Part shown: piece by piece, positions 10,559-35,220 of the stretch
Position numbering within the stretch: the first letter of the stretch is position 1
Layout: the number at the start of each line of letters is the position of its first letter
Program-made: the position numbers and the translations under genes
Source: Candidatus Collierbacteria bacterium RIFCSPLOWO2_01_FULL_50_23
GTDB taxonomy: Bacteria; Patescibacteriota; Microgenomatia; UBA1400; MFAQ01
Assembly (NCBI GenBank): GCA_001774555.1
Contig: MFAI01000036.1
Coordinates: 1,488-65,487 of the forward strand
Reading direction: 5' to 3'
Length of the DNA stretch: 64,000 nucleotides
The notes under the pieces: model-generated
What the model saw: only the letters and a program-made list of their open reading frames with translations
Told to the model about the DNA's origin: nothing
Database searches by the model: none

Positions 10559-11068
10559 ATGAGCCGACCAATCGCTATTTTTGGTTTACCGGAGGAGAAA
10601 TTTGTCAACAAAGTTTTCTCTCTGCGCCAGAAACTCCTCGAGGAGAAAAAACTGGAAGAGGCCGAGTCCACCACCCTTCCGCACCTCACCATTCTCGTCA
10701 ACACCACTCTCGACGATCTGGTCAGCAACGACTTCCTCATCCAAAAACTAACCCCCCTGGTTTCAGTCCTAAAACATTTCTCCCTCACTGTCACCGGTTT
10801 CGAGAAACTGGACACCAGTATCATCGCCAAATTCGATACCGGCCTCACCCGGAAACTGGTCTACCAAACGTCATCCGTCCTGCCCGGTTTCCGCGCCATC
10901 ACCACCGATTTTCTCAAGATCCTCCGCCGCACGGTTCCAACCGCAACCGACGAAGCCCTTGAAACGGTAAAGACTGAATTCAAAAGTGAAATTACTATCG
11001 ACCGCATTTGTATCGCCGGCGGCAGTCTCCGCCGGGAGGATGTTATCTGGACCGGCAAACTGGGTTAG
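10559..11068 (+). CDS. Hypothetical protein, weak 2H-phosphoesterase (LigT-like) resemblance
   Basis: Start chosen at MSRPIAIFGLPEE (internal ATG of the track ORF). IAIFGLP and PHLTILV (H-x-T-x) resemble LigT motif 1, but the second H-x-T/S-x motif is not in the expected position. Confidence 0.3.
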   Translation: MSRPIAIFGLPEEKFVNKVFSLRQKLLEEKKLEEAESTTLPHLTILVNTTLDDLVSNDFLIQKLTPLVSVLKHFSLTVTGFEKLDTSIIAKFDTGLTRKLVYQTSSVLPGFRAITTDFLKILRRTVPTATDEALETVKTEFKSEITIDRICIAGGSLRREDVIWTGKLG

Positions 11069-11082
11069 GATATATTAGAGTG

Positions 11083-11742
11083 ATGAAATCAACTAAGTTT
11101 GCCATCGTCATGCTGGCAGCTTTTTTTATTTTCTCTCTCCTGGTGCTCTCCGGAGTCCTCGCCCAAATTGACCAAGATATAACCGTCGTAATTCAAAGTC
11201 GCCTAACCAAAACACTCGACACCCCTCTTTCCTTCCTTAGTCTACTGGGAGCCGCCGAGATCACCACTTTTTTTCTCTTGATTGCCCTATTTTTCATGAA
11301 ACTCCACCGCAGCCTGATCACTCTACTAATGTTTGCCTTGGGTACCGGTATCGAGTTACTTGGAAAAACCTTTCTCTATCATCCCGGCCCCCCGAACATA
11401 TTCTTTCGTTACAACCTGGAGGTTCTCTTCCCTTCCGCCTATGTCCAAACCGGCCACTCATATCCCTCGGGCCACAGCTTCCGTACTGCCTTTCTGACCG
11501 TCCTGGTCGGCTATCTGATCTTCCAATCCAAAAAGTTATCACAAAGGAGCAAAAAGAGCCTCTCTCTTCTCTGCTATCTCTTCCTGTTTTTGATGTTGCT
11601 TTCCCGCGTCTCTCTAGGAGAACACTGGACCACCGACGTCATCGGCGGACTACTCCTGGGCGCCGGTCTGGCCGGCCTCTCCATTTCTCTGATTACTCCA
11701 GGCACAAACAGTGGCAATTTTGACTCAAAACTGGTAAAATAG
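11083..11742 (+). CDS. PAP2-family membrane phosphatase (phosphatidic acid / undecaprenyl-PP phosphatase type)
   Basis: Start at MKSTKF. Multi-TM protein with PAP2 signature motifs PSGHS and SRVSLGEHWTTDV (SR-x5-H-x3-D). Confidence 0.7.
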   Translation: MKSTKFAIVMLAAFFIFSLLVLSGVLAQIDQDITVVIQSRLTKTLDTPLSFLSLLGAAEITTFFLLIALFFMKLHRSLITLLMFALGTGIELLGKTFLYHPGPPNIFFRYNLEVLFPSAYVQTGHSYPSGHSFRTAFLTVLVGYLIFQSKKLSQRSKKSLSLLCYLFLFLMLLSRVSLGEHWTTDVIGGLLLGAGLAGLSISLITPGTNSGNFDSKLVK

Positions 11743-11823
11743 GGCCACTCGTTAACGCCTGCTCGGGCTGAATTAACCTGGCAACAGGTTTTTTTGTGCC
11801 AGAGAACGTAGACCCATAATAAT

Positions 11824-13656
11824 ATGACAGACAGAAAGATCAGAAACATCGCCGTCATTGCCCACGTTGACCACGGCAAAACGACCCTAATTGACGCCCT
11901 CTTGAAGCAGAGTCATATTTTTCGTGACAATCAGGCGGAAATGAGCCAGACCACCATCCTCGACAGCAACGACCTTGAACGGGAGAAGGGGATTACCATC
12001 CTGGCCAAAAACACCGCCATTTCCTACCACGACGTCAAGATCAACGTCATCGATACCCCGGGACACGCCGATTTTTCCGGCGAGGTCGAACGGACTCTCG
12101 GTATGGCCGACGGCGCCCTCCTGATCATCGACGCCCAGGAAGGACCGATGCCCCAGACCCGTTTTGTGCTAAAAAAAGCCTTTGAACTCAACCTGAAGAT
12201 CATCGTGGTCATAAATAAGATCGATAAACCCTACGCCCGCGTTCCTGAAGTGATCGACAAAACCGACAATCTCTTTCTCGAATTGGCCACCCGAGACGAA
12301 CAGCTCGATTTTCCGATTCTCTACGCAGTCGGCCGCGACGGCAAAGCCTTCAAAGAACTACCAACCGACTTCAACCAGCCGGGAGACATCACCCCGCTGA
12401 TGGACGCCATCCTGGAATACATTCCCTCACCGGAAAACTCACTCGAGGGCAGCTTCAAAATGCTCGTTTCTAGCCTCGATTACGACTCCCACAAAGGCCG
12501 TTACATCATCGGTAAAATTTTCCGCGGCAGCATCAAACCCGGCGACAAAGTTGTCCTAAGCGGAAACAATCGAAGTTACACCATTGAGACCGTCCAGCTT
12601 TCCCGCGGTCTTTCTCGCTACGAAACAAACGAGGCTTTTGCCGGGGATATTGTTGCCCTGACCGGAGTATCCGATGCTAAGATCGGTGACACTATTGCCA
12701 ATGCCGCGGATACCGAGCCCCTAGCCGCCCCCAAGCTCACCGAGCCAACTCTTCATATGACCATCGCCGCCAACACCTCGCCTTTCTCTGCCCGCGAAGG
12801 CCAGTTCACCACCAGCCGTCAGCTGGAAGACCGCCTCTACAAAGAGCTTGAAACCAATCTTTCCCTCAAACTCGAAAAGCTCGAAAGCGGTAAGTTCCAG
12901 ATCTCCGGCAAAGGCGAACTCCACCTGGCTATTCTTCTCGAAACCCTTCGTCGTCAGGGCTATGAAATGGAAGTCGGTAAACCCGAGGTCATCGTCAGGA
13001 CCATCGATGGCATCAGTCAGGAGCCGGTCGAAGAGGTCAGTATCATCGTCCCCAGTGAGTATCTGGGCACTATCACCCAGGAGATCGGCAAGCGTCTTGG
13101 GGTGATGGTCAAAATGGAGCCCATTTACGGCGTCGAGACCGAGTTCACCTATACCATCCCAACCAGGAACATCATCGGCCTAAGGAGCCTGCTTCTGACG
13201 GCTACCAAGGGCACCGCCGTGTTCAGTTCCCAGGTGACCGGCTACCAGCCTGTAGGCAACCCTCTGCCCAAGCTCCGCCGTGGAGTACTTATCTCCTCAG
13301 AAACCGGTGAGGCTCTGGCTTATGGCCTCCAAAACGCCCAGGGTCGTGGTATCACCTTCGTCGGGCCGGGAACGGAGGTCTACGAGGGCATGATCATCGG
13401 CGTCAACGCCAAGGAAGAGGATATTGAGATCAACGTCACCAAAGGCAAGAAGCTCACCAACATGCGCTCCCAAGCCTCAGATGGTGTCATCCAACTTACT
13501 CCGGCTACCGTCATGAGTTTGGAGCAGTCTTTGGACTTCCTCGAGGGCGATGAGCTCCTGGAGATCACCCCGGTCTCCCTCCGCTTACGCAAGAAGTATC
13601 TGACCGAGATCGATCGCAGACGTACCAACCGCGGACAATCGGCCATTTCCCAATAA
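11824..13656 (+). CDS. typA: Translational GTPase TypA/BipA
   Basis: 610 aa. G1 [10 protein letters not shown]3 DTPGH, G4 NKID. Domain order and length match BipA rather than EF-G or LepA. Confidence 0.9.
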
Positions 13657-13702
13657 TCAAGTTTTCAATCGTTTGGTAGCCGTGAGATAATACCCATGTA
13701 TC

Positions 13703-13789
13703 GCCGAGGTGGTGAAATGGTAGCCACGCGGGACTTAAAATCCCGTTCCCTTCAAAGGAGTGCGGGTTCGAGTCCCGCCCTCGGCACCA
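13703..13789 (+). tRNA. tRNA-Leu (anticodon TAA)
   Basis: Acceptor GCCGAGG/CCTCGGC with discriminator A and encoded CCA. Anticodon loop CTTAAAA. Long variable arm. T-arm GCGGG-TTCGAGT-CCCGC. Confidence 0.85.
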
Positions 13790-13790
13790 T

Positions 13791-13864
<74 letters not shown>

Positions 13865-13960
13865 CTAATCCATTCCACTCCCATACCAATCTGCCAAATT
13901 TCCGCTATCCATTGGTGGTGGGGGGTCATCAGGTCCAAACTAGTTCTTTTTTTCACTCAC

Positions 13961-14033
13961 GGAGCGGGTGAGGGGAGTCGGACCCCTGTCATCAGCTTGG
14001 AAAGCTGAGGTAATACCGTTATACGACACCCGC
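13961..14033 (-). tRNA. tRNA-Gly (anticodon TCC)
   Basis: Reverse complement reads GCGGGTG-TC-GTAT-AACGGTA-TTAC-C-TCAGC-TTTCCAA-GCTGA-TGAC-AGGGG-TCCGACT-CCCCT-CACCCGC-T-CC. Very close to canonical bacterial tRNA-Gly(UCC). T-loop TCCGACT is atypical. Confidence 0.8.
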
Positions 14034-14270
14034 TAATTCACTCGTATTTTACCAAATTTCGAGGGCAAAAAATTCGAAATAGCACTCTCGGGTTTTCTAA
14101 ACCATCTTGCCGCCACCAATCAGGAATGTTCTGTCGAGCTTCACCACCGGAAGAAAACGGTCCAAACCAACCAAGGATTTTTATATCCCTATCGCATTGA
14201 TACCTTCCGAGATAGAGATAAATACCAGGCTGAAACTTCTCGATATCAAATGCAGACTTCAGAACTTCCA

Positions 14271-14347
14271 TGGTCGGGGTGAGAGGACTCGAACCTCCGG
14301 CCTCTGCGTCCCAAACGCAGCGCTCTAGCCATCTGAGCTACACCCCG
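14271..14347 (-). tRNA. tRNA-Pro (anticodon TGG)
   Basis: Reverse complement: CGGGGTG-TA-GCTC-AGATGGCTA-GAGC-G-CTGCG-TTTGGGA-CGCAG-AGGCC-GGAGG-TTCGAGT-CCTCT-CACCCCG-A-CCA. Confidence 0.85.
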
Positions 14348-14399
14348 ATACGCCTATTTTAGCAAAGTCAGCCATGAATAGGTTAAAATATAAGGGTAT

Positions 14400-14477
14400 G
14401 GTGGGTGTAGCTTAGTTGGTTCAAAGCGCCTCCCTGTGGAGGAGGAGATCGCGGGTTCGACTCCCGTCACTCACCCA
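14400..14477 (+). tRNA. tRNA-His (anticodon GTG) with encoded G-1
   Basis: G(-1) precedes acceptor GTGGGTG, pairing with discriminator C73. Anticodon loop CTGTGGA. T-arm GCGGG-TTCGACT-CCCGT. Confidence 0.8.
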
Positions 14478-14564
14478 AAAAGGTGATATAGATTGATATA
14501 TCGGTATATACATGTCATTACACCTTGCTCGTCCAAAAAGTATGAATATATTAAGATAAATACT

Positions 14565-15368
14565 ATGAATGAAAAAGAAATTATAGGGATCATTAAAAGC
14601 ACGGTCTCTGTAGGTGTTACTGAGTCAATTGGACACAGAAGCTCAATGGAGGACACTCATCTTACAGTTACAAAACTCAATACCTCAAAAAACGATGGTG
14701 TGGAAAAATCCTTTTTTGCAGTGTTTGATGGTCACGGTGGGTCAGATGGCTCAAACCTGGCGAGAGAAACTGTTGAGGAAATAGTAATTGAAAATCTTAA
14801 CTTAGACAAACAGCCTGAGGAAGCACTGCGAGACACGTTTCACCAAATTGATAAAGGAATAGAAGATTCTGGTTTTCCATATGGATGCACCGCAGCCTCA
14901 GTTTTGTTAGAAGGAAACTCGCTAACGGTCGCAAATGTCGGTGACACCAGAGTTCTATTGATTAAACTCGGTGAAGGCGAAGAAACAGCTCAAAGGATTT
15001 CAAAAGATCATACCCTTAGTGATGAAGAAGAAGTGGAACGCGTTAAAGCTACAGGTGCTCAAATTGCAAGAGGAAGAATTATGGTTGGAAATGTCGGAAT
15101 AAACGTTGTTAGAGCTTTGGGGGATAAGTTTTTTGGTGAAGCAGTATCTGCTGACCCAACAGTATCAAAACAAATATTGGCTCCTGGTAAATACCGCGTA
15201 GTATTAGAATGCGATGGTGTTTGGCAGGCAGTCCCAGATGAAGACTTGGCGAAACTGATCACAGGAAAGAACCCTAAGGATGCAACCGAAGCACTTGTAA
15301 AAAAAGCAAATGACGATTGGGTGAATGACAACTTTACAGCGATTGTTGTAGATATTGAGATATTTTAG
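14565..15368 (+). CDS. PP2C-family (PPM) Ser/Thr protein phosphatase
   Basis: Start at MNEKEI. PPM motifs GHRSSMEDTH, FFAVFDGHGGSDGS, a later DG ... GD metal-binding region and a C-terminal D-x-DN. Low-GC (~38-40%) gene. Confidence 0.75.
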   Translation: MNEKEIIGIIKSTVSVGVTESIGHRSSMEDTHLTVTKLNTSKNDGVEKSFFAVFDGHGGSDGSNLARETVEEIVIENLNLDKQPEEALRDTFHQIDKGIEDSGFPYGCTAASVLLEGNSLTVANVGDTRVLLIKLGEGEETAQRISKDHTLSDEEEVERVKATGAQIARGRIMVGNVGINVVRALGDKFFGEAVSADPTVSKQILAPGKYRVVLECDGVWQAVPDEDLAKLITGKNPKDATEALVKKANDDWVNDNFTAIVVDIEIF

Positions 15369-15422
15369 GAATAACGGTCACATATATCTCCATCATTCTC
15401 TTTATCGCTGGCGTCGAGAAAA

Positions 15423-15505
15423 CCTCGGCCTTTCAGGCCGAGGATGAAAGACGCACTAAGGATATTTCTTCCTTGGCGAGAAACCCACGGCCTTTCAGGC
15501 CGGGG
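15423..15505. repeat. Tandem pair of near-identical GC hairpins (cctcggcc-tttc-aggccgagg and ccacggcc-tttc-aggccgggg) about 62 nt apart
   Basis: Direct inspection: two copies of a ~60 nt unit, each containing a GGCC-TTTC-GGCC hairpin, between the PP2C gene and the next ORF. No downstream U-tract. Confidence 0.45.
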
Positions 15506-15511
15506 AGTTTC

Positions 15512-15563
15512 ATTTGCGCACAAATCGGTTCCAAGAACTCATCATCAAGAACCCCAAAACACC
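15512..15563. repeat. Copy 1 of a ~52 bp direct repeat (atttgcgcacaaatcggttccaagaactcatc...gaaccccaaaacac), spanning the TTG start of ORF 15514..16290
   Basis: About 88% identical to copy 2 at 16984..17034, same orientation. Confidence 0.55.
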
Positions 15564-16290
15564 CCATAACCTTGTAGGGAGCTCCAAAAATGGTATCATT
15601 TCGAGCATGGGGAAACCAAAAGAAGCCCAAGGCACACCCGAGCAAACCACTTTCGAAAATACCCTTCAATTAAGATTCAGAGGATTAGTGCTCGACATGC
15701 TTTTTACTCGATGGCACTCGGAGGAGCTTGATCGACTGCTTGATTTATATCAAAAAGGGGATCTTGATGCTTGTTATATTCTCGGCTTCGTATCAACTCA
15801 CCATGAGGCAAAGGTATGTCCTGAGCACTATGGTGCTGGCCGAAACCTTTGGGACTACGTTACCAAAGAGATGTATCCACTACTACAAGCTAAATATGGA
15901 AACCAGGTTGGCTCGGACATATACCGGCAACTGTTCGGCTTCCTTTTTGAAAACCAAGACCTAGTAGCAGATGGAGAGCTAAACCAAACCTTGGTCCTAT
16001 CCTGGCTAAGTAGTCTCGAGGCTGCACTCGGACACATTGAACAGACTATTTTCATTTCAGCGGGTAATTCGACCAAGACTTATCTTGAATCCAAAATCCA
16101 AGAAACTGAGGCTAACGTTCAAGTCTTTAGAATCGCTCTCGTAGAAAACGGTGGGGAATTGAAAAATGGCAGAAGGGTCGATCAAGAATACATTGATGGT
16201 CTAGAAAAGAAAATTAGGTCCTACAATGAGGCGTTAAACCGTCTGAAAGACTTTCAAACAAGCGTCGGGAAAATCATTTTGGAAAGCTAA
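15514..16290 (+). CDS. Hypothetical protein (no recognisable domain)
   Basis: 258 aa ORF with a TTG start in the track; alternative ATG starts lie downstream. Low GC. No motif recognised. Confidence 0.35.
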   Translation: MRTNRFQELIIKNPKTPHNLVGSSKNGIISSMGKPKEAQGTPEQTTFENTLQLRFRGLVLDMLFTRWHSEELDRLLDLYQKGDLDACYILGFVSTHHEAKVCPEHYGAGRNLWDYVTKEMYPLLQAKYGNQVGSDIYRQLFGFLFENQDLVADGELNQTLVLSWLSSLEAALGHIEQTIFISAGNSTKTYLESKIQETEANVQVFRIALVENGGELKNGRRVDQEYIDGLEKKIRSYNEALNRLKDFQTSVGKIILES

Positions 16291-16367
16291 ATAAATTCTA
16301 CACTCATCCAGCCAGTGACCCAATAATATGATATATATTGATATATCAATGTATATCCAAATGTAAA

Positions 16368-16898
16368 TTAATTTAATTTCTTTGAGTAAAATACAGCGTC
16401 ACCGTTGCCGTAGTATTCTTTCAAAATCCCAATCTTGACGAAACCCAATTTTTCATAAAACTTATGATCTGCCGTTAGAAGAACATGGGTACTAAGGATC
16501 AGGCTTTTTGCCCCCATTTCTCTTGCAGCATTTTCGGCCATTTCTACAAGCTTCGAACCGATTCCAAGTCCGCGAGTGGAAGAGTCAACTGCTAGTACGA
16601 ACATCTCAGCTTTATTACCATCTGGCCAACTAATAGGATTTTGTTTCCCAAATAAGACAATACCTAATAACTTTCCGTCCTCATTTCTTGCTTCAAGCAA
16701 AAAACCATGCTTCAAATAATCCTTAACCTGATCGATGTCAAGCCACTCCTTAAGAGTTTGGCCTTTATTCTCCACATCGAAACTAGCCTGATCTCCAGGA
16801 GTCAATGCGTTAAAAGCGTTCTCCAAGAAACAACTTAGTTCTGTAAGACTTGGATTCTCTTGAATCTCATATTTCACCTCTTCGTTTGTAGTAGCCAT
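16368..16898 (-). CDS. GNAT-family N-acetyltransferase
   Basis: 176 aa. Acetyl-CoA binding motif A VDSSTRGLGIGSKLVEMAENAARE (R-x-x-G-x-G/A) and a GNAT-length fold. Confidence 0.75.
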   Translation of the reverse strand: MATTNEEVKYEIQENPSLTELSCFLENAFNALTPGDQASFDVENKGQTLKEWLDIDQVKDYLKHGFLLEARNEDGKLLGIVLFGKQNPISWPDGNKAEMFVLAVDSSTRGLGIGSKLVEMAENAAREMGAKSLILSTHVLLTADHKFYEKLGFVKIGILKEYYGNGDAVFYSKKLN

Positions 16899-16983
16899 TA
16901 CAACGATTATACAAGTTCAATATGTCGCTAGGCCACGTTATCCTGAAACATATGAGGGCGTAAATAACTCTCGTAATTTTGCA

Positions 16984-17034
16984 ATTTGCGCACAAACCGG
17001 TTCTAAGATCTCATCGGGAAGAACCCCAAAACAC
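16984..17034. repeat. Copy 2 of the ~52 bp direct repeat (atttgcgcacaaaccggttctaagatctcatcgggaagaaccccaaaacac)
   Basis: Intergenic between the GNAT start and the HExxH gene stop. The in-frame reading hits a stop after 6 codons, so this is a remnant or boundary copy. Confidence 0.55.
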
Positions 17035-17072
17035 TTGGCAAGGTTTAATAAATCAACTGAGGCCTGAATAAA

Positions 17073-18056
17073 CTATCGTTTTGCGGCAATAATAGTTTTC
17101 AACAAAGAGGCCTCTTGGGTACCGCTTTCCAGTAACATCGCCAGAATATCTTTGTTGAAGTGAAGAATAATCTCCTTGGCTAACTTGTTCCTAGCACCGG
17201 TTTTACCAATTCGTACATCAGCGAAAATTTCAAGCAAATTGGGGATTTCATCCCGCAAAAGAAAAAATATTTGCAGAATATGGGTGTACTCTGTAGTTTT
17301 AAAAACCGCGCTGTCATCAACCCTCAAAAAAGTCGTAATTAGCTTTGGGTCAAGACCTTGCTTAATCGCGTTAGCGGTGACAAACTTTATGCTTTCAGCG
17401 ACAAATGGATTATCAATATTCTTGATGTTTGTTGCCGTATATCCTTCGGTATATATCTCTTCTAATAGATCTTTCGACGATGACATGCTCATCTTATCCA
17501 TACCCGCCAAAACATCAATACTGTCATACTCCAATTCATCGGTTGAATTAGCTGTTTGATCAGGTTTTATCCGTATAACACCCCTCTGTCTTGAAACAGC
17601 ATGACGACATTCGTGGAACAGAACCGTCGAAACTTGAAAAATGCCAAATTGATCCAGATTCTCAGGATAAAGAACCACAACCATTCTTTCCAATGGGAAA
17701 TAATAGCCTTTTACAGTATCTTCGTCAGGAAAGAAACCTTTGCGCACGAATAACACTTTTAATTCGAACTGTCCTTCTTCGATCAATCCTTCCCCTGAAG
17801 CTTGGTGTCTAAAATATTGGACGACATCGTTACGTATGGATTGAATTTTGGGGTCAATACCATTTTCCGGAACAGCGAATTTCTCTATGTTATCTTTAAT
17901 TTCTTCTGAAATTACACGGGGCTCATGTTTGCCTACCGGTACCAACAGTCCACGCAATTCATCTCGCAACTTCGTTTCTTTGATAGCTTTATCTTTTATT
18001 TGAGGCAAGACGCCCTTATTTTGCAGTACCACATCAGCTTCAATTACAGGTTCCAT
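17073..18056 (-). CDS. Hypothetical protein with HExxH motif (putative zinc-dependent metallopeptidase)
   Basis: 327 aa with FHECRHAV (HExxH). No signal peptide. Low GC. Confidence 0.4.
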   Translation of the reverse strand: MEPVIEADVVLQNKGVLPQIKDKAIKETKLRDELRGLLVPVGKHEPRVISEEIKDNIEKFAVPENGIDPKIQSIRNDVVQYFRHQASGEGLIEEGQFELKVLFVRKGFFPDEDTVKGYYFPLERMVVVLYPENLDQFGIFQVSTVLFHECRHAVSRQRGVIRIKPDQTANSTDELEYDSIDVLAGMDKMSMSSSKDLLEEIYTEGYTATNIKNIDNPFVAESIKFVTANAIKQGLDPKLITTFLRVDDSAVFKTTEYTHILQIFFLLRDEIPNLLEIFADVRIGKTGARNKLAKEIILHFNKDILAMLLESGTQEASLLKTIIAAKR

Positions 18057-18113
18057 AATACTTAGTATATCCTCCGATTTACGTAAACCACAGGAAGAAC
18101 CCCAAAAAGCCCG

Positions 18114-18755
18114 TCAGGAAAAATCTGCCTCGACCAGACGGTTAAGAACAGCGGAATCAAGATCCGCCTTATTTACTATTTCGCCCGCATTTAACCTCAT
18201 CAGCTTCCTCCAGTTACTAACATGGGTAACCAATTTGACCCTTAGCTTTTCCATAACCAACTCCTGATTTGGCATGGCTTTCCGCGATTCCTCCGCACTA
18301 GCTCTTATGCCGGTAATCAAATGTATCCTGGCCCGGGCATTTCTACTCGTTTGCCGGCCACTACCGCCGGCATGAACACTGGCCGTGAACTGCTCCCATT
18401 TTCCGCACTCGTCATTTGTAATCCGCATTGAATCCGGATTATTTATGTATTGCATCAGCCAGTCCAGGTATTTTGTCAGCCCTGGGACTGACGGATTCTC
18501 TCCGTCCTGCTCCGATAAGTATCTCAAGATACTATCGACTTCGTCAGCTGGGGACTTTTCGTCGTTCTCTCTTCTGTCCATGGCATTATCCACTTGACCA
18601 AGACGCGCCTCTGATCCCTTGTGGATCCTTCTCCCTTTACTCCCCCAAGATTCAGCTTTCTTCTTTTTTCCACCACCGCCAGATCCGCCCCTGCCATGAA
18701 TCTTCTCATCAATAACATCAGCCAACTCATCCTCCGAAAGGCTTCTTTCTATCAT
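18114..18755 (-). CDS. Hypothetical protein with Gly-rich/Lys-rich N-terminal tract
   Basis: 213 aa. GRGGSGGGGKKKKAESWGSKGRR low-complexity segment. No recognised domain. Confidence 0.3.
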   Translation of the reverse strand: MIERSLSEDELADVIDEKIHGRGGSGGGGKKKKAESWGSKGRRIHKGSEARLGQVDNAMDRRENDEKSPADEVDSILRYLSEQDGENPSVPGLTKYLDWLMQYINNPDSMRITNDECGKWEQFTASVHAGGSGRQTSRNARARIHLITGIRASAEESRKAMPNQELVMEKLRVKLVTHVSNWRKLMRLNAGEIVNKADLDSAVLNRLVEADFS

Positions 18756-18785
18756 CTTGCTATTTTACCCCACAAAAGAACCCGT

Positions 18786-19499
18786 CTACCGTCTTTCTTT
18801 TCTTGCCCAATAGGCATTAACTTCGGCAAGCGTTTCAAAAGATCCCGCGTCGGACCAATATCCCTCAAGCATCGACCACCGAAGTTGACCTTCTTCCAAA
18901 TATTGATTATTCAAATCCGTAATTTCGAGTTCGCCCCTTGGCGAAGGTTTAATTTTGTCTATTTTGTCAAAAACCGTGGGGTCATAAATATAGACACCGG
19001 TAACGGCCAGATTACTCTCCGGCACTTGTGGCTTCTCGACTATCCTCTTTACTATTCCACCTTCAATGGTGGCCACCCCAAATCTCTCCGGATCGTCAAT
19101 TTCCTTTAAGAAAATCATTGCCCCTCCCCTGAATTCTCGTACCGCCTCACTAATATCAGCGTTAGTACAATTGTCACCCAAAATTACCGTAACATTGTCA
19201 TTATCAGCAAAACTCCTAGCCAGTCTAAGTGCGTCAGCAATACCCCCTTCACCTTCTTGATATGCATACTCAAGATGTTTTAGACCAAAAGCCTCTCCGT
19301 TTTTGAGTACTCTAATGAAATCTCCGGCAAAAGGACCGCCCACTATCAACATAATCTCGTCGATCCCGGCCCTGACCAAAGTCTCGATCGGACGGTAGAT
19401 CATCGGCTTGTCGTAAACAGGCAATAAATGTTTATTGGTTACATACGTCAGCGGCCTCAACCTGGTTCCAAGTCCGCCTGCGGTTATTACTCCCTTCAT
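18786..19499 (-). CDS. Sugar-phosphate nucleotidyltransferase (glucose-1-phosphate thymidylyl/uridylyltransferase, RmlA-like)
   Basis: Start at MKGVITAGGLGTRLRPLT (G-x-G-T-R-x-x-P-x-T nucleotide-binding loop) and a later EKP motif. The track ORF extends further 5' but overlaps the neighbouring gene. Confidence 0.7.
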   Translation of the reverse strand: MKGVITAGGLGTRLRPLTYVTNKHLLPVYDKPMIYRPIETLVRAGIDEIMLIVGGPFAGDFIRVLKNGEAFGLKHLEYAYQEGEGGIADALRLARSFADNDNVTVILGDNCTNADISEAVREFRGGAMIFLKEIDDPERFGVATIEGGIVKRIVEKPQVPESNLAVTGVYIYDPTVFDKIDKIKPSPRGELEITDLNNQYLEEGQLRWSMLEGYWSDAGSFETLAEVNAYWARKERR

Positions 19500-19573
19500 G
19501 GGCAAAATTCTAACACAAGCAGCAATAAAAAACCCGTCCTTTTGGGGGACGGGTTCATTTCGATGACCGAGGG

Positions 19574-20383
19574 TCAGGCCTGGGGATGCCCCTGAGGGCA
19601 CATCGCCGCGCCCCTCTCGATCGGCAAGCTGCAGTACTGGCAGTGAGTCGCGACAAACTCCTTCTGCGCCTCGTCTCTGGCATCTTTTGCCAGATCGGCT
19701 TTCAGGTCGGCAAGCGCATTTTCAACCTGCACGCCATAGGTTTCGACCGTGTCCACCACGGCATTCATCTCAGCGAGTTCCCCAGCCGTCTCAATGGCTG
19801 TGGAGATAACCTTCTTGCCGAGGTTCAGCAGGTTTTCCAGGCCGAAGCCACCGGGGTTGGTCATCCGGCGCAGGGTTTCATCGGCCACATCGGCCGCGGT
19901 GCCTTTTGCCTTGTCCGTGTTCGGCCGGCTGATCACCACGCTGGTGTCCTCGGCTTCAACACTGAGGCGAACTTCGCAAAGGCGCGAGCCGTCGGCAAGC
20001 GAGGTCAGGACGATCGAGTCGCCGGATCGCGTCACACGGAATTTGTCTCCGAGACGCGTCTGGAGACGCCCAGCGAGTTCGTTCAGGGACAGCGGCGCCT
20101 CATAACGCATTTGCTTCCCCTTGAGAAGCTCCATGACGCGGGTAACGACCATCGCCGTCCCCACTCCACCGGGCCCGAGCGCTGCCAGGCCGGCATCAAG
20201 GGCGTCATTCTGCGCCGGCCGCGACGCCACGATGCGCATTCCAGCAATCTCTGCCTTCAGCAACGCTTCGTCTGCCATCGAGAGATTCATCGCGTTGATG
20301 GTAGTCTTCGCATCCGCCTCAGACAATGCCGCCAGAAGTTCTTTCTCCGATTTTGCGACTTCGGAAAGTCTCAACTTGGCCAT
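19574..20383 (-). CDS. Hypothetical Ala-rich protein with C-terminal zinc-ribbon-like CxxC...CPxG
   Basis: 269 aa in a high-GC (~58-60%) block. C-terminus CQYCSLPIERGAAMCPQGH. No other motif recognised. Confidence 0.35.
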   Translation of the reverse strand: MAKLRLSEVAKSEKELLAALSEADAKTTINAMNLSMADEALLKAEIAGMRIVASRPAQNDALDAGLAALGPGGVGTAMVVTRVMELLKGKQMRYEAPLSLNELAGRLQTRLGDKFRVTRSGDSIVLTSLADGSRLCEVRLSVEAEDTSVVISRPNTDKAKGTAADVADETLRRMTNPGGFGLENLLNLGKKVISTAIETAGELAEMNAVVDTVETYGVQVENALADLKADLAKDARDEAQKEFVATHCQYCSLPIERGAAMCPQGHPQA

Positions 20384-20568
20384 ATTTACCTCCTATGGGT
20401 TTTGGCCGAACTATTATGTGCAATTTCGTATGTTCAATACGACTGAGGATATTTTAGATTATCTTGCCAGGAAATTCAACCTATAGCATATGGTGGGTGA
20501 ACGAAGGTGTGGGGGCGAGCGAGTTGACGAAAAGAGTCAAAAACCTAAAGAGTATATAATTTCAAAAA

Positions 20569-22420
20569 GTGAGATTTGAAAGAACCGCAGAACGAATGTG
20601 GGTGCGCGTCGAACAGGCCGCCACCAAAACTACCGTCAAAGTCAACCAACAAGTAATCGGCGAACACCTCGGTGCCTGGACTCCTTTTGAATTCGAAATT
20701 ACCAAGGCCCTCGGGAACGAGAACGAGCTTGAAGTCATCTGTGAAGATGTCAGTCACGTCACCGGTGGCTTTTTGCCGGCAGTCGGCATCCACTGGACCG
20801 GCGCCCGCCGGGTTGTGGTAAAGGATTGTCCCACCATTCTCCGCCCATCCGTCGCATCCCGAGCCTCCGTCGAAGGCACCAAACTCTTGGTTGACGGCGA
20901 ACCTTTCCGAACCCGCGGTATTCTCCACTGGGGTCTGTATCCGGAGCATGGGGGCAAACCCTGGCCGACCGAGGAACAAATGCGTCAGGAGATCAGAGAC
21001 GTCAAGGCGCTGGGGTTTAATCTGATCAAATTCTGTCTTTGGGTCCCCCCCGGAGCGTTATTACCAGCTCTGCGACGAAATGGGAATGTTTGTCTGGCAG
21101 GAATACCCCGTCTGGGACAAACCAATTCACGACAGAAGTCTGATCAAAGAATTCGAGGAACTTTTCCGCCACGACGGACCCTACGACTCGGTCATTCTGC
21201 GAACATTAACCTGTGAAAACACTCAAACCGACCCCGCACTCATCCAGGAAATAATGGACCTCGGCCACCGTCTCATTCCGGGCGCACTGATTCTGGACAA
21301 CAGCAGTTGGGTCGGCGACGAGCGTGCCGGCGACTTTCACGATGAGCATCCCTATCTTCACAATGCCCAATGGATTTATTACCCCAAAAGGATGAAGGAC
21401 CTTAATCTCCAAAAACCACTCCTTCTGGGAGAAACCATGGCCGTTGATACCCCGCCGGGCGGGCCGCACACTCAAGGCATAGAGGTGCGCCGCTTCCAGA
21501 TCGAAACCCTGGCACAAGCCCTACCTGACACCGGCTACGTCCTAAACTCAATTCGCGACCTTGACAGCGTTCCTCTGGGGCTCTTTACCTACAGCGGAGA
21601 GCCAAAGTATAGTCCCGAGGACTGGGCGTGGCACACTGACCATCTGGGGGCGCCCACCCGCCGCATTCCCGAAGCCGATCCGAGTCTTGGCCATATTATT
21701 GGTCCAAGGAAGGGTGAATGGAAATGCCCTGAACACACCTGGTGGAGTCCGTGGATAAAAATCTACGATCAGGACTTGCCGGAAGATCTGATTCAGCGGG
21801 AGTGTGTCTTTGAACTGCTATCCGGACGGGTGCTTAGTCAGACCGAAGGCACCCGCGTGCTTGTGGAAATGTGGGACCTCCACCCGGGTGAAGTAATAAA
21901 ACACCCCCTGGTGGTCGAGTTCACCACCCAGGGCGAACGTCGGGTCGTTTCCGCCTTCCGTCACGATACTCCTGCCGGACAGCTATTGTGGCAAGTCCTA
22001 CAGGCACGCACCGGTCCGGCTCCGGAAATCGGCCCTCTTATTGGCGACGCCATTGTTCTGGGCGACTGGGAAATGAGTACCGACGGAGAAAACTGGACTC
22101 CTACCGTCTGCGATACACCCCTGGTCAATCACGGCGCGAACGTCTACGAAGGCTGGGCCACCTTCCGCACCGGCTTTGACTATCCGGGCGGCGAGATGAC
22201 CCTTCGTGCCGAGGCAGTGGGGGACCAATACCGCATTGAAATCGACGGTCAGCCGGTGGGGACGGGCGGCAAGGGCATCCGCGACATTCCCAAAAACTTT
22301 CCGGTCAATCTCAGTCAAGGTAGACACAATATTGTCTTCGAAGTCAGAGATTGGAGAGCGGCCGGCGGCATGGTCGGCCCGGTTTACTTCACGAAAAATC
22401 TAGGCCTGCGCATCTTCTAG
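20569..22420 (+). pseudogene. Glycoside hydrolase family 2-like (beta-galactosidase/mannosidase-type) gene remnant, 5'-truncated and frameshifted at a poly-C tract
   Basis: Two track ORFs (20569..21216 and 21080..22420) in different frames join across the C-run at ~21046-21054. Frame 1 ends ...NLIKFCLWVPP and frame 2 continues YQLCDEMGMFVWQEYP, matching the GH2 TIM-barrel entry motif (N-x-V-R-x-S-H-Y-P ... L-C-D-x-x-G-x-x-V-W-x-E). The N-terminus starts mid sugar-binding domain (TPFEFEIT). Confidence 0.5.
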
Positions 22421-22473
22421 CCATATCTTCGCAAAAATCGTACGGCCCATAACATTGACATAATAATTTTTCC

Positions 22474-22508
22474 GTGTTAAGATATTCCCGTTCTTTGACA
22501 ACTCTTGT
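22474..22508 (+). promoter_or_regulatory. Candidate sigma70-type promoter (TTGACA-17nt-TAAGAT) upstream of ORF 22632..23312
   Basis: cattgacataataatttttccgtgttaagatattc has a consensus -35 and a near-consensus -10 with 17 nt spacing, leaving a ~120 nt leader. Confidence 0.35.
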
Positions 22509-22631
22509 AGGGAGTTAAGTGGACACAAGCCAAAGCTGACCAATGGGTCGGCGCTTTCTTGTGTTTGCTTCGTCTCCCTGCAGCTACTTTTCCGGGAGAA
22601 ACTTTTTTGATGCCCCTAAGGAGGCTCGTCT

Positions 22632-23312
22632 ATGTCACAAACATTCGCAGTTTACGGCTCCACCATGAGAGTGGAGATCCTGGTCGGGGAAATGCCCCAG
22701 CCGATCTACCGGCGCAAAGATGACGACATGCCGTTCGTCGAGGCCCTGTTGGGCCGCCCGTACGTCATCCGCGTCACCCCCACGTTCGTGAACGGCCGGC
22801 TGGAGGTCATCTCCAGCGTTGACGGCCGCAACACCCTCAAGAACGAGGTCGCCAACCCGATCGAAAACCATGGCATGGTCATCTCCAGCCCCTGGGAAAT
22901 CACCGGCTTCCGCCTCAACCAGGTAGAGACGGCTCAGTTCGTTTTCGGCGGCACGGCAGGATCGGTGGTCGAGCAGGCTACCGGCAGCACGGTGAACGCC
23001 GGCGTCATTGGCCTGGCGAGCTACCGCGAATTCCAGCAGTTCAACCAGCGCGAAGGCCCAATAAACTATGGCCTCACGCGCTCCAAAGGCGGCGAAGGTG
23101 CCGACGCCGGCACCCATGCGGGCGAGGCGCGCTTCGACCCCGTCGGCACGACCACATTCCGGCGCGCGACCCTCAGGCCTGTGGAAATGCTCGAAATCCA
23201 ATACCGCACTCGGGATTGGCTCGTCCGGAACGGCATCATCGCGTCCGACGATCCCAGCCCCTGGCCGGGCTTCCGCTCAAACAACACAGGGTACGACATC
23301 CTCCGCAAGTAG
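22632..23312 (+). CDS. Hypothetical protein (high GC)
   Basis: 226 aa with a good ATG plus GGAGG RBS (ctaaggaggctcgtctatg). No recognised motif. Followed by a strong terminator. Confidence 0.4.
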   Translation: MSQTFAVYGSTMRVEILVGEMPQPIYRRKDDDMPFVEALLGRPYVIRVTPTFVNGRLEVISSVDGRNTLKNEVANPIENHGMVISSPWEITGFRLNQVETAQFVFGGTAGSVVEQATGSTVNAGVIGLASYREFQQFNQREGPINYGLTRSKGGEGADAGTHAGEARFDPVGTTTFRRATLRPVEMLEIQYRTRDWLVRNGIIASDDPSPWPGFRSNNTGYDILRK

Positions 23313-28116: not shown

Positions 28117-30894
28117 TCACGAGCAAGCCGCCGGATTATTGTTAGCTACACAAATAGGGATCTTGATTTCGCTTGCCAACTGTTTACCGTCGCGAGGAAA
28201 AGGGTTCTGGTGGTCGATAATATGCGCGTGCCAACTAAGAATATGCCACCCGTCTGCCACTTTTCTAGTATCCAAAGTCATCGCCTGCCTGCTTTTCCAA
28301 GTCGAACCTATTCCCCCCAATTCAGTGGCGGGAACAAATAGTCTTTGCACCGTATAGTCATCCCCATTTTGATCTATGCGCAACTCAATATGATGCACTG
28401 TCGACAACCTATCCGTACTTGTCGAGGTTCCTCTCGATCCAAACCCATATACGGTCAGATTGCCTTTGACTGTTCCCCCCAAAAGCTGTATCGGGCTCAA
28501 GTTCCCCCTCCCCTCGTCCCTAGCCCCATCTATTGTGGCATACGCGTACCCCAGCTTCTCGTACCAAGCATGGGCATCCAAAATGTCATATGCGGTCGCG
28601 GGTAACACCGGATGATGGGCCGCCCCCGTGCCGCCAGTCCCAGGATCTCGGTTGAACCATATCACCTGATTTATATTCACCTGCAAGCCATCGCCGCTTG
28701 CCGCCGACCCGTCTCCGAAATTGTTTGTCGATCCCTCTTTTGCCAAACACCTTGTCCGCAGTTCATACGAGTCGGCCCCCCCCTCGGCCGTAAGCGTCAT
28801 ATTCACAAAATTCTCTACCGTATTTTGGCTCAAAGAACGATAAGAACCTCCACTCCTTTGAATCACCAAGTTGTGACTGCCGCTCAAAGTATTTTTTGCT
28901 GTTCCTTTGGCCGGGTATTTGCCCGGCTTCAAACAAGTCATACTTTGCGTTATCACGTCTCCGGAATTAAATCTCTTTCTTTCTGGAAATATGCTCCTAT
29001 TCACAACCCACACCTGGTTTTCATAAAACTTATCTGTGGGGCCCCACCACGCCCCTCCAGCGGCAATATTTCGGTTTCCAGCTCGCACCTGGTTTAATAT
29101 AAATTCATTCGTATAATTGTCCGAATCAGTGAGAGAGTCAAAACCTCCACAATCCACTCGAGCAAAGCCATTTAAAAAGCATGTTCCATCTCCGATTGGC
29201 GGCTGTGTCGGAGGGGGAGTAGCAGTTGACACCAATGGCGTAGGCGTAGGAGTTCGCGTTGGCGACGGAGATGCATTTGGACTAGACGACGGTGCAATTG
29301 CAAAAGAATCTGAAAAGTTACCCCCTCCGCCGTTTGCCGCAGTCACCGGCGCCTTGATAAAATCTACTTGTAAACGATTGGATGTCACGTTGATTTTCGC
29401 AAACCCGTGTGTGGGGTTAAAACTCGACCCCGACCATCTGGCAAAATAGACCTGTTCGGGATCGGACAAGTCAAAAGACGTTAGCGACGCTCCCCCAGAT
29501 CCCACCATGTAAAAAATTGTACCTTGGCCTTTAGTGTAAGTTCTTCCGGAACTAGTAGTAGAGTTGACTATACAAACACTGGGATAAAAAGAAGGACTGC
29601 TAACACAGTTACTACTTCCTGCCTTTCCCAACAGCTTGCTTATCTGGACACCATGTTTATGCCCTTCCAGCACCAAGTCCACCTTTTTTTCTAAAAGCAA
29701 GTTCATTACCTCTGTCCCCGAATCACAGCCCAAGCCCATAACTATACATGGGTAGTGTTTGCCCACGATGATCCACCCAATACCAGCGGCCCTGGCCGAA
29801 TCAATGGCGTTCACCAACCACGTTCGGTGAACACCGCTTGAGTAAGAATAATATCCTTCACTGTCATCAGAAAAGTCCAAGCCCGGGGAAATCATGATAA
29901 ACCTAGCCAGAGGCAAAGACTGGGGGTAGTCAAAGTAAAATTCCCGGGCATACTTGCCCACCATGCCGGATATTCGGTTCGGCAAACAGTTGGCAAAATT
30001 AATAATGTTCCCATCTGGACCACTGTCTTCGTGATTACCCGCCACCAGCTCAAAAGGGAAACTACTTCCCACATAACCTTTAACAAAATCGCACCAGGCC
30101 GATTCTGGCGTCACGTGGTTGTAACTTAAATCTCCCAAAGCCAGAAAGAAATTCAAGTTATTTTTGGCCACTTCAGTCAGCACTACACCACCACGATAGG
30201 TCCGGCCACCAATATCACCCGCCGCCCCAAAGGTAAAGCTACCAGGCGCGTTGGTGGGAATAGGGGTAGCGGTTGACACCAATGGCGCAGGCGTAGGAGT
30301 CCGCGTTGGCGTCGGTGAATTAGTTGGCAAAACCGGATTCAAAGTCAATATTGACCCCCCACTCTCAAACAGCAATTCTCTCGCTTCTATGTCTACCACC
30401 TGCACCCCATTTATCCCAACAACCGTCGAGGTGTCGCTTTGAGACGTATTCGAGTCGAATTTCAAAGACGCTATCAATATCTCTCCTACTACGGGATTGG
30501 CTCTTGTCAGCGGATCCAGCCCCACCGCCACTCTGATCTTGCCAGTCGAGTTAGCCTCACCCTTTTCTGTCTTCACAATTACTCGGTTTAAAACCGGTCC
30601 CAATTCAACCTCGTTTTTCAGTTGCACCTTACTGGCATCAAATTCCACCACTAGGTCTGCAAAAACTACTTTTTTTCCTTTGGTATCTAGTCTCACCGTC
30701 AAGCTCTGATCGGGAGGCAATGTGGTCGCTTCGGGGGACACAAAAACACGCACTTTCTCACTAGTTGCAGCTCTCAGAGAAAACCTCACTTCACGCTGTA
30801 CCAATATCAATACTATTCCAAATCCCGCCAGCAACAATCCCGCCAGCAACAATCTTACCATCGAAACCCGCCCAACTAGTTTCCTTATCACCAT
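28117..30894 (-). CDS. Large membrane-anchored surface protein: cohesin-like N-terminal beta domain, Thr/Pro linker, calcineurin-like metallophosphoesterase domain, second Thr/Pro linker, C-terminal domain
   Basis: 925 aa with N-terminal TM. Metallophosphoesterase motifs GDLSY, GNHE and GHKH are present. Linkers PTPTRTPTPAPLVSTATP and SPSPTRTPTPTPLVSTATPPPT. The N-terminal region VVFADLVVEFDASKVQLKN...GEILIASLKF resembles a cohesin module. Confidence 0.55.
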   Translation of the reverse strand: MVIRKLVGRVSMVRLLLAGLLLAGFGIVLILVQREVRFSLRAATSEKVRVFVSPEATTLPPDQSLTVRLDTKGKKVVFADLVVEFDASKVQLKNEVELGPVLNRVIVKTEKGEANSTGKIRVAVGLDPLTRANPVVGEILIASLKFDSNTSQSDTSTVVGINGVQVVDIEARELLFESGGSILTLNPVLPTNSPTPTRTPTPAPLVSTATPIPTNAPGSFTFGAAGDIGGRTYRGGVVLTEVAKNNLNFFLALGDLSYNHVTPESAWCDFVKGYVGSSFPFELVAGNHEDSGPDGNIINFANCLPNRISGMVGKYAREFYFDYPQSLPLARFIMISPGLDFSDDSEGYYSYSSGVHRTWLVNAIDSARAAGIGWIIVGKHYPCIVMGLGCDSGTEVMNLLLEKKVDLVLEGHKHGVQISKLLGKAGSSNCVSSPSFYPSVCIVNSTTSSGRTYTKGQGTIFYMVGSGGASLTSFDLSDPEQVYFARWSGSSFNPTHGFAKINVTSNRLQVDFIKAPVTAANGGGGNFSDSFAIAPSSSPNASPSPTRTPTPTPLVSTATPPPTQPPIGDGTCFLNGFARVDCGGFDSLTDSDNYTNEFILNQVRAGNRNIAAGGAWWGPTDKFYENQVWVVNRSIFPERKRFNSGDVITQSMTCLKPGKYPAKGTAKNTLSGSHNLVIQRSGGSYRSLSQNTVENFVNMTLTAEGGADSYELRTRCLAKEGSTNNFGDGSAASGDGLQVNINQVIWFNRDPGTGGTGAAHHPVLPATAYDILDAHAWYEKLGYAYATIDGARDEGRGNLSPIQLLGGTVKGNLTVYGFGSRGTSTSTDRLSTVHHIELRIDQNGDDYTVQRLFVPATELGGIGSTWKSRQAMTLDTRKVADGWHILSWHAHIIDHQNPFPRDGKQLASEIKIPICVANNNPAACS

Positions 30895-33800: not shown

Positions 33801-34028
33801 AGTCAATACCGCGATAGGATTAATCCACAGTGCCAAATCTGAGGTCTTCATTTGATGACAGAACGTAGTTCCAACCGTACTTGACGAGCAAGAAATATCC
33901 CCGGCAGTCACAATCACCGGATCACTGGACTGAGCCATTGCCCTCGCTGGACCAAACAAGCCCAACACAAACAACCACACTAAGAACAGATACTTATTCA
34001 TACACTTGTCCCAAAATTGATTCAACAA
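30894..34028 (-). CDS. Giant secreted protein: N-terminal purple-acid-phosphatase-like metallophosphoesterase, parallel beta-helix (pectin-lyase fold) repeats, 16-aa Thr/Pro tandem repeats, dockerin-like Ca-binding repeats, C-terminal domain
   Basis: 1044 aa with signal peptide. Metallophosphoesterase motifs GDNQY, GNHEY and GHDHDYER. Beta-helix repeats such as IRNNIIAGTRRGISFFN and TVIEHNTIVDTRE. Repeats TSTAVPTATRVPTFVP x3. DADCDGAVNEMDLEIL and DFNDDNVVDGVDFAIW look like dockerin/EF-hand-like loops. Confidence 0.55.
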   Translation of the reverse strand: MLNQFWDKCMNKYLFLVWLFVLGLFGPARAMAQSSDPVIVTAGDISCSSSTVGTTFCHQMKTSDLALWINPIAVLTLGDNQYPDGTLSTFNTYYEPSWGRLKRITRPVPGNHEYNTSGAAGYYGYFGSAAGDPNKGYYSYNIGSWHIIALNSEIARSTGSVQEQWLRSDLAANPRTCTLAYWHKPRFSSGNHGSDTSVRPFWQALYDYKADVVLSGHDHDYERFAPQGPSGLSDFGGGIRQFVVGTGGKSLYSFGTAVSNSEFRFNSGFGILKLTLRPTSYEWQFISDNASHTVLDSGSGNCVTGAVVSSPTGTAAATPAPVSGSSGNYYVSPQGSDSSPGTLSQPFKTLQKATNAVGPGDTVWVRSGVYNQAWRITKSGTATGRITFKNYPNETPVIDGGGLSISYYGALVTIGSNSSRTNYVTLSGFVVQNSPAAGINIRGNYNVLDKMKVTRSHARAIDFDNSSYSTLQKSEITNNVLCNENGKRGCNNAPTWPINIGVTNADHIKVIDNYVRGNWGEGIASWRGSDSSQIVGNRVVDNWSVDIYLDNAKNSIVERNLVSELDASDGGQKQKIANGISIADENYGRGCPSSNNAIRNNIIAGTRRGISFFNYQPGCSGIKNTVIEHNTIVDTREQAILINSGSHSGSSIRNNILYPRNSGSSSSFSGISSANNLTQDPKLVNINASSATAENYKLTSGSPAIDGGIATATNVDYWNTPRPQGGKFDIGAHEFTSTAVPTATRVPTFVPTSTAVPTATRVPTFVPTSTAVPTRTRDAEILPPADFVGDADCDGAVNEMDLEILIGQFGKPGGACPADADFNDDNVVDGVDFAIWLRTFETNVQTSPALTRVDTGAGVGVELMVESQIGSSADDVNEEKGVLDTYYPSNYGQLWLGDGGAVGRGYAGLRFTNVDVPAKASIVSAKLKFFSAKGQWINMDMNIAAEASGNSLTFSDSSVPSGRQLTKARVNHSSNVSWSSNAWYELDDMAAVIQEVINRDDWVRGNSMAVILKGVGRQWGRKFVVSWDGKSETAPKLVIKYIER
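31707..31820. repeat. Perfect 48 bp tandem repeat (~2.4 copies) inside CDS 30894..34028, encoding TSTAVPTATRVPTFVP
   Basis: gtcggcactgccgtcgatgtgggaacgaaagtaggaacccgagtcgca repeated head-to-tail with no mismatches over two full units. Confidence 0.85.
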
Positions 34029-34458: not shown

Positions 34459-34469
34459 CTACCTAGACT

Positions 34470-35160: not shown

Positions 35161-35220
35161 TAAGTAGAGAGGTTATAGTGTGGGGTACAAAAAAAATTAT
35201 ATAGAGAATCTCTGTGCAGA

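Follow-up and report, generated by a model that had tools for sequence, protein, structure and literature searches.

The window analysed here is a stretch of 64,000 nucleotides (64 kb) from contig MFAI01000036.1 of Candidatus Collierbacteria bacterium RIFCSPLOWO2_01_FULL_50_23 (NCBI naming, with sister bins), a groundwater member of the candidate phyla radiation (CPR). Directly downstream of its tRNA-His gene lies an islet of 3.6 kb, from 14477 to ~18110, which comprises four genes encoding a PP2C phosphatase, an orphan protein, a GNAT acetyltransferase and an HExxH protein. With moderate confidence, we consider it to be a small accessory islet that was acquired horizontally in at least two pieces, is now immobile, and occupies a variable slot adjacent to tRNA-His.

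A low-GC islet downstream of tRNA-His

With regard to composition, the segment 14401-18000 has the lowest GC content of 303 sliding 3.6-kb windows (0.410, for a mean of 0.487 and a standard deviation (sd) of 0.031, z ~ -2.5), and its tetranucleotide distance comes just behind that of the neighbouring high-GC block. In 500-nt windows, the GC content is 0.37-0.45 from 14500 to 18250. The GC content at third codon positions (GC3) is 0.306 for PP2C, which is the lowest of the 55 open reading frames (ORFs) measured in the window, 0.42-0.44 for the orphan, 0.367 for the GNAT, and 0.375 for the HExxH gene, with a window mean of 0.54 (sd 0.10). The initial annotation had described a low-GC block of ~4.2 kb between neighbours of ~48-50% GC. 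The computed GC and tetranucleotide profiles are not uniform and agree with a compositionally distinct region, but the neighbours are richer in GC than was stated, with 0.54-0.57 on the upstream BipA side and 0.57 in the block from 19574 to 23312 (3.7 kb), the highest-GC stretch of the window. The right edge also had to be moved. The gene of a 213-aa G/K-rich protein, which had been included in the block, exhibits the average composition of the window (GC 0.486, GC3 0.509), and the low-GC block therefore ends near 18110 and not at 18760. The five ORFs themselves had been described correctly, as the ORF listing, the Pfam matches, the HECRH motif and the GGSGGGGKKKK tract agree, and ARAGORN and Rfam confirm the five tRNA genes reported at 13703-14477 (strands +,+,-,-,+). 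The Rfam scan returned tRNAs only and no other RNA family.

A syntenic relative of the locus, L091/L092 (GCA_040960175.1), was found through a homologue of the 213-aa gene and belongs to a Collierbacteria-related CPR genome. L091 is collinear with the window over the 213-aa gene, YkuD, VanW, a 347-aa gene, tRNA-Lys/Arg, a 199-aa gene, tRNA-Leu(UAG), trigger factor, DUF5660 and tRNA-Val, and the proteins common to both are 40-79% identical, most of them 63-79%. As the 213-aa gene is of average GC, conserved in CPR, and syntenic with YkuD and VanW in L091, it is a flank of the islet and not island cargo, as it had first been counted. The 3' end of the L091 tRNA-His faces the 213-aa gene, the spacer upstream of this tRNA is recognisably conserved, and the similarity between the window and L091 stops at the last base of tRNA-His. 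The L091 slot is not empty but filled with unrelated genes: it measures 9 kb, against 3.6 kb in the window, and carries a type I cyclic oligonucleotide-based antiphage signalling system (CBASS) and other genes, among them those of HD and PAS-like proteins and of a glycosyltransferase, and tblastn gave no match in L091 to any of the four islet genes. CBASS is an anti-phage defence system; the L091 copy (10635-13626) comprises a CD-NTase cyclase (E 1e-106) and a 2TM/Cap15-type effector (E 1e-71), with the HD and PAS-like genes adjacent. Because both anchors are kept while the contents differ completely between L091 and the window, the interval from tRNA-His to the 213-aa gene is, as judged from these two sequences, a hypervariable slot. 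A comparison of BipA among GTDB representatives placed the closest relatives (87% and 76%) on tiny contigs. In a Collierbacteria genome whose BipA is 70% identical, the tRNA cluster is shared but the genes after tRNA-His are unrelated, which gives no information on timing. A metagenome scan with the 213-aa family yielded nine loci, none of which was syntenic.

Three direct repeats in the region 13600-20500 score beyond the expectation from block shuffles of the same region (D1 36.0, D5 22.5 and D2 21.5, for a shuffle maximum of 16, a mean of 13.0 and an sd of 1.2), and their motifs have no other occurrence in the 64 kb (Table 1). The most informative is D2, which matches at 38/49 positions (78%) between 14462-14510 and 16307-16355 and brackets exactly the PP2C and orphan genes (1.85 kb). 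Its tRNA part matches at 13/17 positions in register, and at least 13/17 is reached at 3e-5 of random positions. Its downstream part matches at 25/32, the next best on the same strand of the window being 19/32 and its own palindromic reverse-strand copy 24/32. The sequence GATATAGATTGATATATC is matched in the 64 kb in the proximal copy and at 16330/16340 only (0.1 expected). The distal copy ends in a 28-nt AT-rich palindrome (I6), and the palindrome motif of D2 is GATATAnATTGATATATC. D2 looks like a decayed attL/attR scar of integration into the 3' end of tRNA-His; as the palindrome could be a terminator or an operator, however, we infer this origin and do not read it directly from the repeat. 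A partial repeat of the tRNA-His 3' end had been expected near 18760. Such a repeat exists, but at 16307-16355. The matches at 18632 (14/17) and 19364 (13/17) were rejected: they lie within conserved coding sequence (the WGSKGR motif of the 213-aa protein and rmlA) and occur at the chance rate (~3.5 expected).

The two copies of D1 match at 45/51 positions (blastn E 8e-10). The 15-mer GGAAGAACCCCAAAA from its core has three matches in the 64 kb, all within the islet (0.33 expected), and precedes the start codons of the orphan, GNAT and HExxH genes by 37-119 nt. An extended ancient tandem duplication behind D1 was considered and rejected, as the diagonal at an offset of ~1475 (z 3.4) is no better than other offsets. 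The D5 hairpins, whose two copies are 90% identical, are terminator-like on the minus strand, and no minus-strand gene ends there.

Table 1 Positions of the islet features and of their flanks in the window
Feature	Position	Strand	Remarks
tRNA-Leu(UAA), Arg(UCU), Gly(UCC), Pro(UGG), His(GUG)	13703-14476	+,+,-,-,+	ARAGORN; Rfam agrees
tRNA-His (GUG)	14401..14476	+	last of five; 3' end toward islet; ARAGORN, Rfam tRNA 66.6 bits
D2, proximal copy, 49 nt	14462..14510	+	last 15 nt of tRNA-His and 34 nt downstream; contains GATATAGATTGATATATC
PPM/PP2C Ser/Thr phosphatase, 267 aa	14565..15368	+	GC 0.409; PF00481 E 2e-43
D5, two tandem GC-rich hairpins	15415..15506	.	CCTCGGCC-TTTCA-GGCCGAGG; between PP2C and orphan; 90% identity
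D1, copy a, 51 nt	15512..15562	+	core (G/T)(G/C)AAGAACCCCAAAA; upstream of orphan ATG
Orphan protein	15514..16290	+	258 aa from TTG 15514 or 227 aa from ATG 15607
D2, distal copy	16307..16357	+	pseudo tRNA-His 3' end and downstream; between convergent orphan and GNAT ends
GNAT N-acetyltransferase, 176 aa, RimI/NAT-like	16368..16898	-	GC 0.395; PF00583 E 1.2e-16
D1, copy b, 51 nt	16984..17034	+	GNAT-HExxH intergenic region
HExxH protein, 327 aa	17073..18056	-	GC 0.396; HECRH at residues 148-152
D1, third copy of 15-nt core GGAAGAACCCCAAAA	18093..18107	+	37 nt upstream of HExxH start codon
G/K-rich protein, 213 aa	18114..18755	-	conserved islet flank; GGSGGGGKKKK tract

Gene products of the islet and its surroundings

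The PP2C gene starts at ATG 14565, which corrects an earlier reading. Its product matches PF00481 at 149.3 bits (cut-off 20.3) and exhibits the complete set of acidic metal-binding motifs (MED28, DGHGG55, GDTR126, DGVW217 and DN255). Its closest PDB matches are all eukaryotic PPMs (insect PP2C, ABI1/HAB1 and PPM1K/A/B), bacterial Stp1 following at E 1e-5. The full domain and all metal-binding motifs are thus common to the islet PP2C and to eukaryote-type PPM/PP2C (PPM1A/K, plant ABI1/HAB1). In contrast, with regard to bacterial Stp1/IreP, the islet PP2C is much nearer to PF00481 and to the eukaryotic structures than to the Stp1 equivalog of NCBIfam, which it matches at 63.6 bits, under the cut-off of 230. 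Of the window genes scanned, none encodes a Hanks-type kinase, in agreement with the first description of a phosphatase without kinase partner.

For the orphan protein, gene callers report both the 258-aa and the 227-aa form. A word-seeded search among 5.8 billion proteins returned the self-match only, and no significant match was obtained in Pfam, NCBIfam, PADLOC or PDB; a single PHROG family was hit (E 0.005), in which no stretch passed, and nothing else. The codon-position GC pattern of the gene is coding-like. The GNAT matches PF00583 at 61.5 bits (cut-off 20.7), possesses the acetyl-CoA motif RGLGIG, and is matched by the NCBIfam rimI model under its cut-off (E 1.9e-10). Its top PDB matches are Naa30, Naa10 and Ard1.

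The HExxH protein gave a self-match only in the word-seeded search, and an exhaustive HMMER search over 1.84 billion representatives gave 20 relatives with 19-42% identity. The family alignment conserves HExRH, an EE pair located 46 residues downstream (LxEExFTxG), and a distinctive C-terminal motif, IPNF..L....R.G..G.R..LA..I...FGKE.L. AlphaFold2 with this alignment produced a model of the HExxH protein with a predicted local distance difference test (pLDDT) of 87.2 and a predicted template modelling score (pTM) of 0.88. Because of the conserved HExRH, the downstream EE pair and the C-terminal motif, together with the AlphaFold2 model, we assign the protein as a predicted member of a rare, divergent and un-annotated family of gluzincin metallopeptidases. 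Like the gluzincins of MEROPS clan MA(E) (M1, thermolysin M4, M30, M61), it exhibits a helix-borne HExxH and a conserved Glu on a later helix. Unlike the named peptidase families, including MPTase-PolyVal, to which it has no sequence match, it is a stand-alone protein of 327 aa with an HExxH-Glu spacing of 46 residues. It matches nothing in Pfam, NCBIfam or PHROG at E up to 10, and a Foldseek search returned nothing significant. Past its TAG stop, the frame remains open for 45 more codons (FIQASVDLLNLAKCFGVLPDEILEPVCAQIAKLRELFTPSYVSG, window 16937-17075 on the minus strand), which cover copy b of D1; this is probably a coincidence.

Among the 20 family members, the single Pfam match is the C-terminal ART-PolyVal ADP-ribosyltransferase domain (PF18760, E 8e-13) of P0026 (L110 290-2143). 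In this respect, one relative resembles the zincin MPTase domains of polyvalent proteins, of which ART-PolyVal is a hallmark. Zincin peptidase, RimI-like GNAT and ART domains are recurrent protein-modifying modules in the "polyvalent" conflict proteins of mobile elements (PMC5512222). In another relative, P0019 (674 aa), the HExxH module is tandemly duplicated. The contexts of six relatives, on contigs of mostly 2-4 kb, are varied, and none includes an adjacent GNAT or PP2C gene. The two closest relatives are encoded directly downstream of SDR nucleotide-sugar epimerase genes, with no other recurrent partner. The contigs of these closest relatives exhibit GC contents of 0.43 and 0.38, which are close to the 0.40 of the islet, a possible donor composition.

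The 213-aa flank protein has 12 homologues (P0003-P0014, 42-63% identity), so far on CPR-type contigs only. The family shares the invariant core TASVxAGGxGRQTSRNARARTHLxTGIR and an N-terminal GGGGGKKKK tract. A weak similarity to the GGQ domain recurs over residues 123-181, which comprise the ..IHL.TGI.. strand and the next helix. Pfam RF-1 (PF00472; E 0.009, 16.4 bits for a cut-off of 35) and NCBIfam PrfH (E 0.005) match below threshold, phmmer and profile searches against PDB return class-I release factors for almost all of their top matches (best E 0.002), and with an approximate ArfB sequence hhalign gives E 0.054. All scores against the RF-1/GGQ domain stay under the curated thresholds, the family carries the motif GG(S/G)GRQ and not GGQ, and the AlphaFold2 model is of low confidence (pLDDT 55.9). 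Class-I release factors and ArfB exhibit codon-recognition domains, whereas the 213-aa protein has an N-terminal G/K-rich tail instead. The family may therefore be considered as a lead, and not a finding, towards a new GGQ-like ribosome-associated factor. If so, this CPR-restricted family could bear on ribosome rescue in CPR.

The remaining genes of the window are typical CPR content, including type IV pilus genes and the genes of phenylalanyl-tRNA synthetase (PheRS), initiation factor 3 (IF3), a penicillin-binding protein (PBP), RecG and RNase III. L091 lacks two further segments of the window, namely rmlA with the high-GC block (18786-23312) and the segment 28117-35889. The former, a second variable segment beside the low-GC islet, consists of an rmlA-like gene followed by the high-GC block, and L091 has no counterpart of it between its YkuD and 213-aa genes. 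The block at 19574-23312 shows the largest tetranucleotide distance of the window, and its products of 269, 215+446 (possibly a split GH2-like protein) and 226 aa match no family; clusters of strain single-nucleotide polymorphisms (SNPs) are located in the 446-aa gene. The third variable segment, 28117-35889, is absent in L091 between the 199-aa gene and tRNA-Leu(UAG) and encodes giant proteins of 925 and 1044 aa with Metallophos, beta-helix and dockerin domains, beside a 154-aa ORF and a low-GC methyltransferase gene. In the tRNA cluster, the orientation of tRNA-Pro relative to tRNA-His is inverted between the window (14271-14347) and L091 (19840-19914), the spacer by tRNA-His being conserved. 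Beyond tRNA-Pro, L091 carries an HTH_23 (transposase-like) gene where the window has the Gly, Arg and Leu tRNAs and BipA.

Origin and possible role of the islet

Horizontal acquisition from organisms of lower GC content, in two or more pieces, is the most likely source of the islet DNA. The 1.85 kb nearest to tRNA-His, with PP2C and the orphan, would have entered by site-specific integration into the 3' end of tRNA-His, leaving a scar that has since decayed. The distal 1.75 kb, with the GNAT and HExxH genes, would be older or separately acquired cargo. As no recombinase remains, the islet would now be immobile. The GNAT and HExxH genes share their strand with rmlA and the 213-aa gene, and the gaps are short, so that their co-transcription with these two is probable. 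The three annotated products (Ser/Thr phosphatase, N-acetyltransferase and zinc peptidase) are cytoplasmic and most likely change the state of proteins of the cell or of an invader; they would serve as accessory regulators or as effectors in conflicts, and not in housekeeping chemistry. A conflict-related role, whether in defence, counter-defence or the control of a host or partner, is suggested by two observations alone, the location and the ART-PolyVal fusion of one relative.

Several observations weigh against horizontal acquisition through tRNA-His. All strain contigs carry the islet, with zero SNPs in it, and no empty site is seen among them. No integrase, recombinase, transposase, relaxase or phage gene is present in the ORFs of 14477-18760 or in the immediate flanks. 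No significant match is found in PADLOC-DB v2, where the best hits are PDC-M21C for PP2C (E 0.0038) and SspA for the 213-aa protein (E 0.036), the others giving nothing. D2 is only 78% identical, extends 34 nt past the tRNA, and includes a palindrome which may be a terminator or operator common to both sites; the distal half has no bounding repeat, and none is located at ~18110. The synteny rests on a single relative, which is distant (40-79%), and the different genes in its slot do not tell when the islet was acquired. Composition varies along the window (sd of gene GC 0.05), which contains further low-GC genes. Finally, the HExxH gene is two genes from rmlA, and this proximity, together with the epimerase-adjacent relatives, hints at an old, possibly native, linkage. 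The integrated island of the initial annotation is thus retained for its distinct composition, its abutment on a tRNA 3' end and the different genes found in L091, and not for its mobility, as no mobility gene is present, nor for its extent, as the 213-aa gene is not cargo.

The main alternative, which we regard as unlikely although it deserves serious consideration, is that the four genes are native, fast-evolving and lineage-specific, their low GC content reflecting weak selection or AT-biased drift and the repeats being regulatory or terminator motifs. It would account for the lack of mobility genes and would fit with the many flanking genes that also have no Pfam match, with the other low-GC genes of the window (a second low-GC spot is formed by the MFS/ABC-F gene pair at 38071-40783, GC 0.41), with the HExxH relatives that occur in housekeeping-looking contexts of other small genomes and beside nucleotide-sugar genes, and with the probable co-transcription of the HExxH gene with core genes. 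Nevertheless, it does not readily explain why the synteny with L091 breaks exactly at both anchors, with slots of entirely different content and size, why the distal D2 reproduces the tRNA-His 3' end in register, or why PP2C exhibits the lowest GC3 of the ORFs measured. The sharp GC steps at 14480, near 18100 and again at 19570 could also point to an assembly or binning chimera of DNA from two organisms. However, the locus sequence recurs at 99.8-100% identity in at least ten independently assembled contigs (ENA, JGI, NCBI, Logan), several of which cover both islet edges with identical joins from differing samples and assemblers. A chimera is therefore excluded for practical purposes, and we leave it a negligible probability.

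With regard to function, a new anti-phage defence or counter-defence system, in which factors of the phage or the host would be dephosphorylated, acetylated and proteolysed, is improbable in our opinion. Single HExxH peptidases can be abortive-infection genes, as is the case for Lit, which provides a precedent. The three annotated products all act on proteins, the same slot of L091 carries the CBASS, and one relative of the peptidase carries ART-PolyVal, which is among the domains of conflict proteins in mobile elements (PMC5512222). In contrast, the PADLOC search gave no significant match (best PDC-M21C, E 0.004), the genes are not co-located anywhere else, and GNAT and PP2C are generic enzyme families. 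The genes are arranged as two pairs of divergent orientation split by a repeat, and therefore the four do not form a single operon. The PHROGs return generic acetyltransferase and PP2C families only. In tblastn searches of 50,697 phage records, the HExxH protein has no match and PP2C has weak matches at 26%; IMG/VR gives no PP2C match, and the fold search in BFVD nothing significant. The four genes were not found together elsewhere, the relatives of the HExxH and orphan proteins being in unrelated contexts or lacking altogether. The statement of the initial annotation that the gene combination matches no recognised named system agrees with these searches, while its suggestion of a defence or toxin system is a guess from location, since there is no PADLOC match, no phage relative and no co-occurrence. 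A bolder proposal, which we rate just as low, is that the four genes form an unrecognised CPR conflict module which rewrites protein modification in invaders or host partners and is exchanged via the tRNA-His slot, the 49-nt repeat marking a recombinase-independent, trans-mobilised cassette. Still far less probable is a toxin-antitoxin pair of the GNAT-toxin type, or another addiction module, on a degraded prophage or satellite. The GNAT toxins TacT and AtaT are of a size similar to the 176 aa of the islet GNAT, and the site is tRNA-adjacent. However, no small antitoxin ORF of the ribbon-helix-helix (RHH)/DUF1778 type adjoins 16368-16898, the intergenic region 16899-17072 contains no ORF with a start codon, the GNAT is nearest to the RimI/Naa N-terminal acetyltransferases, and its phage-related matches are limited to generic acetyltransferase PHROGs.

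Comparison with defence and genomic islands

The horizontally acquired islet that we favour is of a kind already well known, and represents a new, decayed instance in a CPR genome. Accessory islets linked to tRNA genes are commonplace in bacteria, so that the islet as such alters little in what is known. It does document a defence-capable hypervariable slot in the reduced genomes of Collierbacteria, in which mobile DNA and immunity are poorly charted. The putative gluzincin family, now defined with ~20 representatives in 1.84 billion proteins, one of them joined to the toxin-like ART-PolyVal domain, and the putative GGQ-like CPR family are minor by-products that are worth recording.

Compared with defence islands and hotspots, the islet is alike in its location, as it occupies the slot that carries a type I CBASS in L091. 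It differs in its content: none of its four genes matches a defence model, and no sensor-effector logic is recognisable. Compared with the genomic islands that target tRNA genes by means of a tyrosine integrase, the islet is alike in its abutment on a tRNA 3' end, its deviant composition, its absence at the corresponding site of a relative, and possibly its imperfect repeat of the tRNA terminus. It differs from them in having no integrase or mobility gene, in its size of only 3.6 kb, and in a repeat of 78% identity that surrounds the first half only. In these respects, it behaves like a decayed remnant or a cis-mobilisable fragment, and not like an active island.

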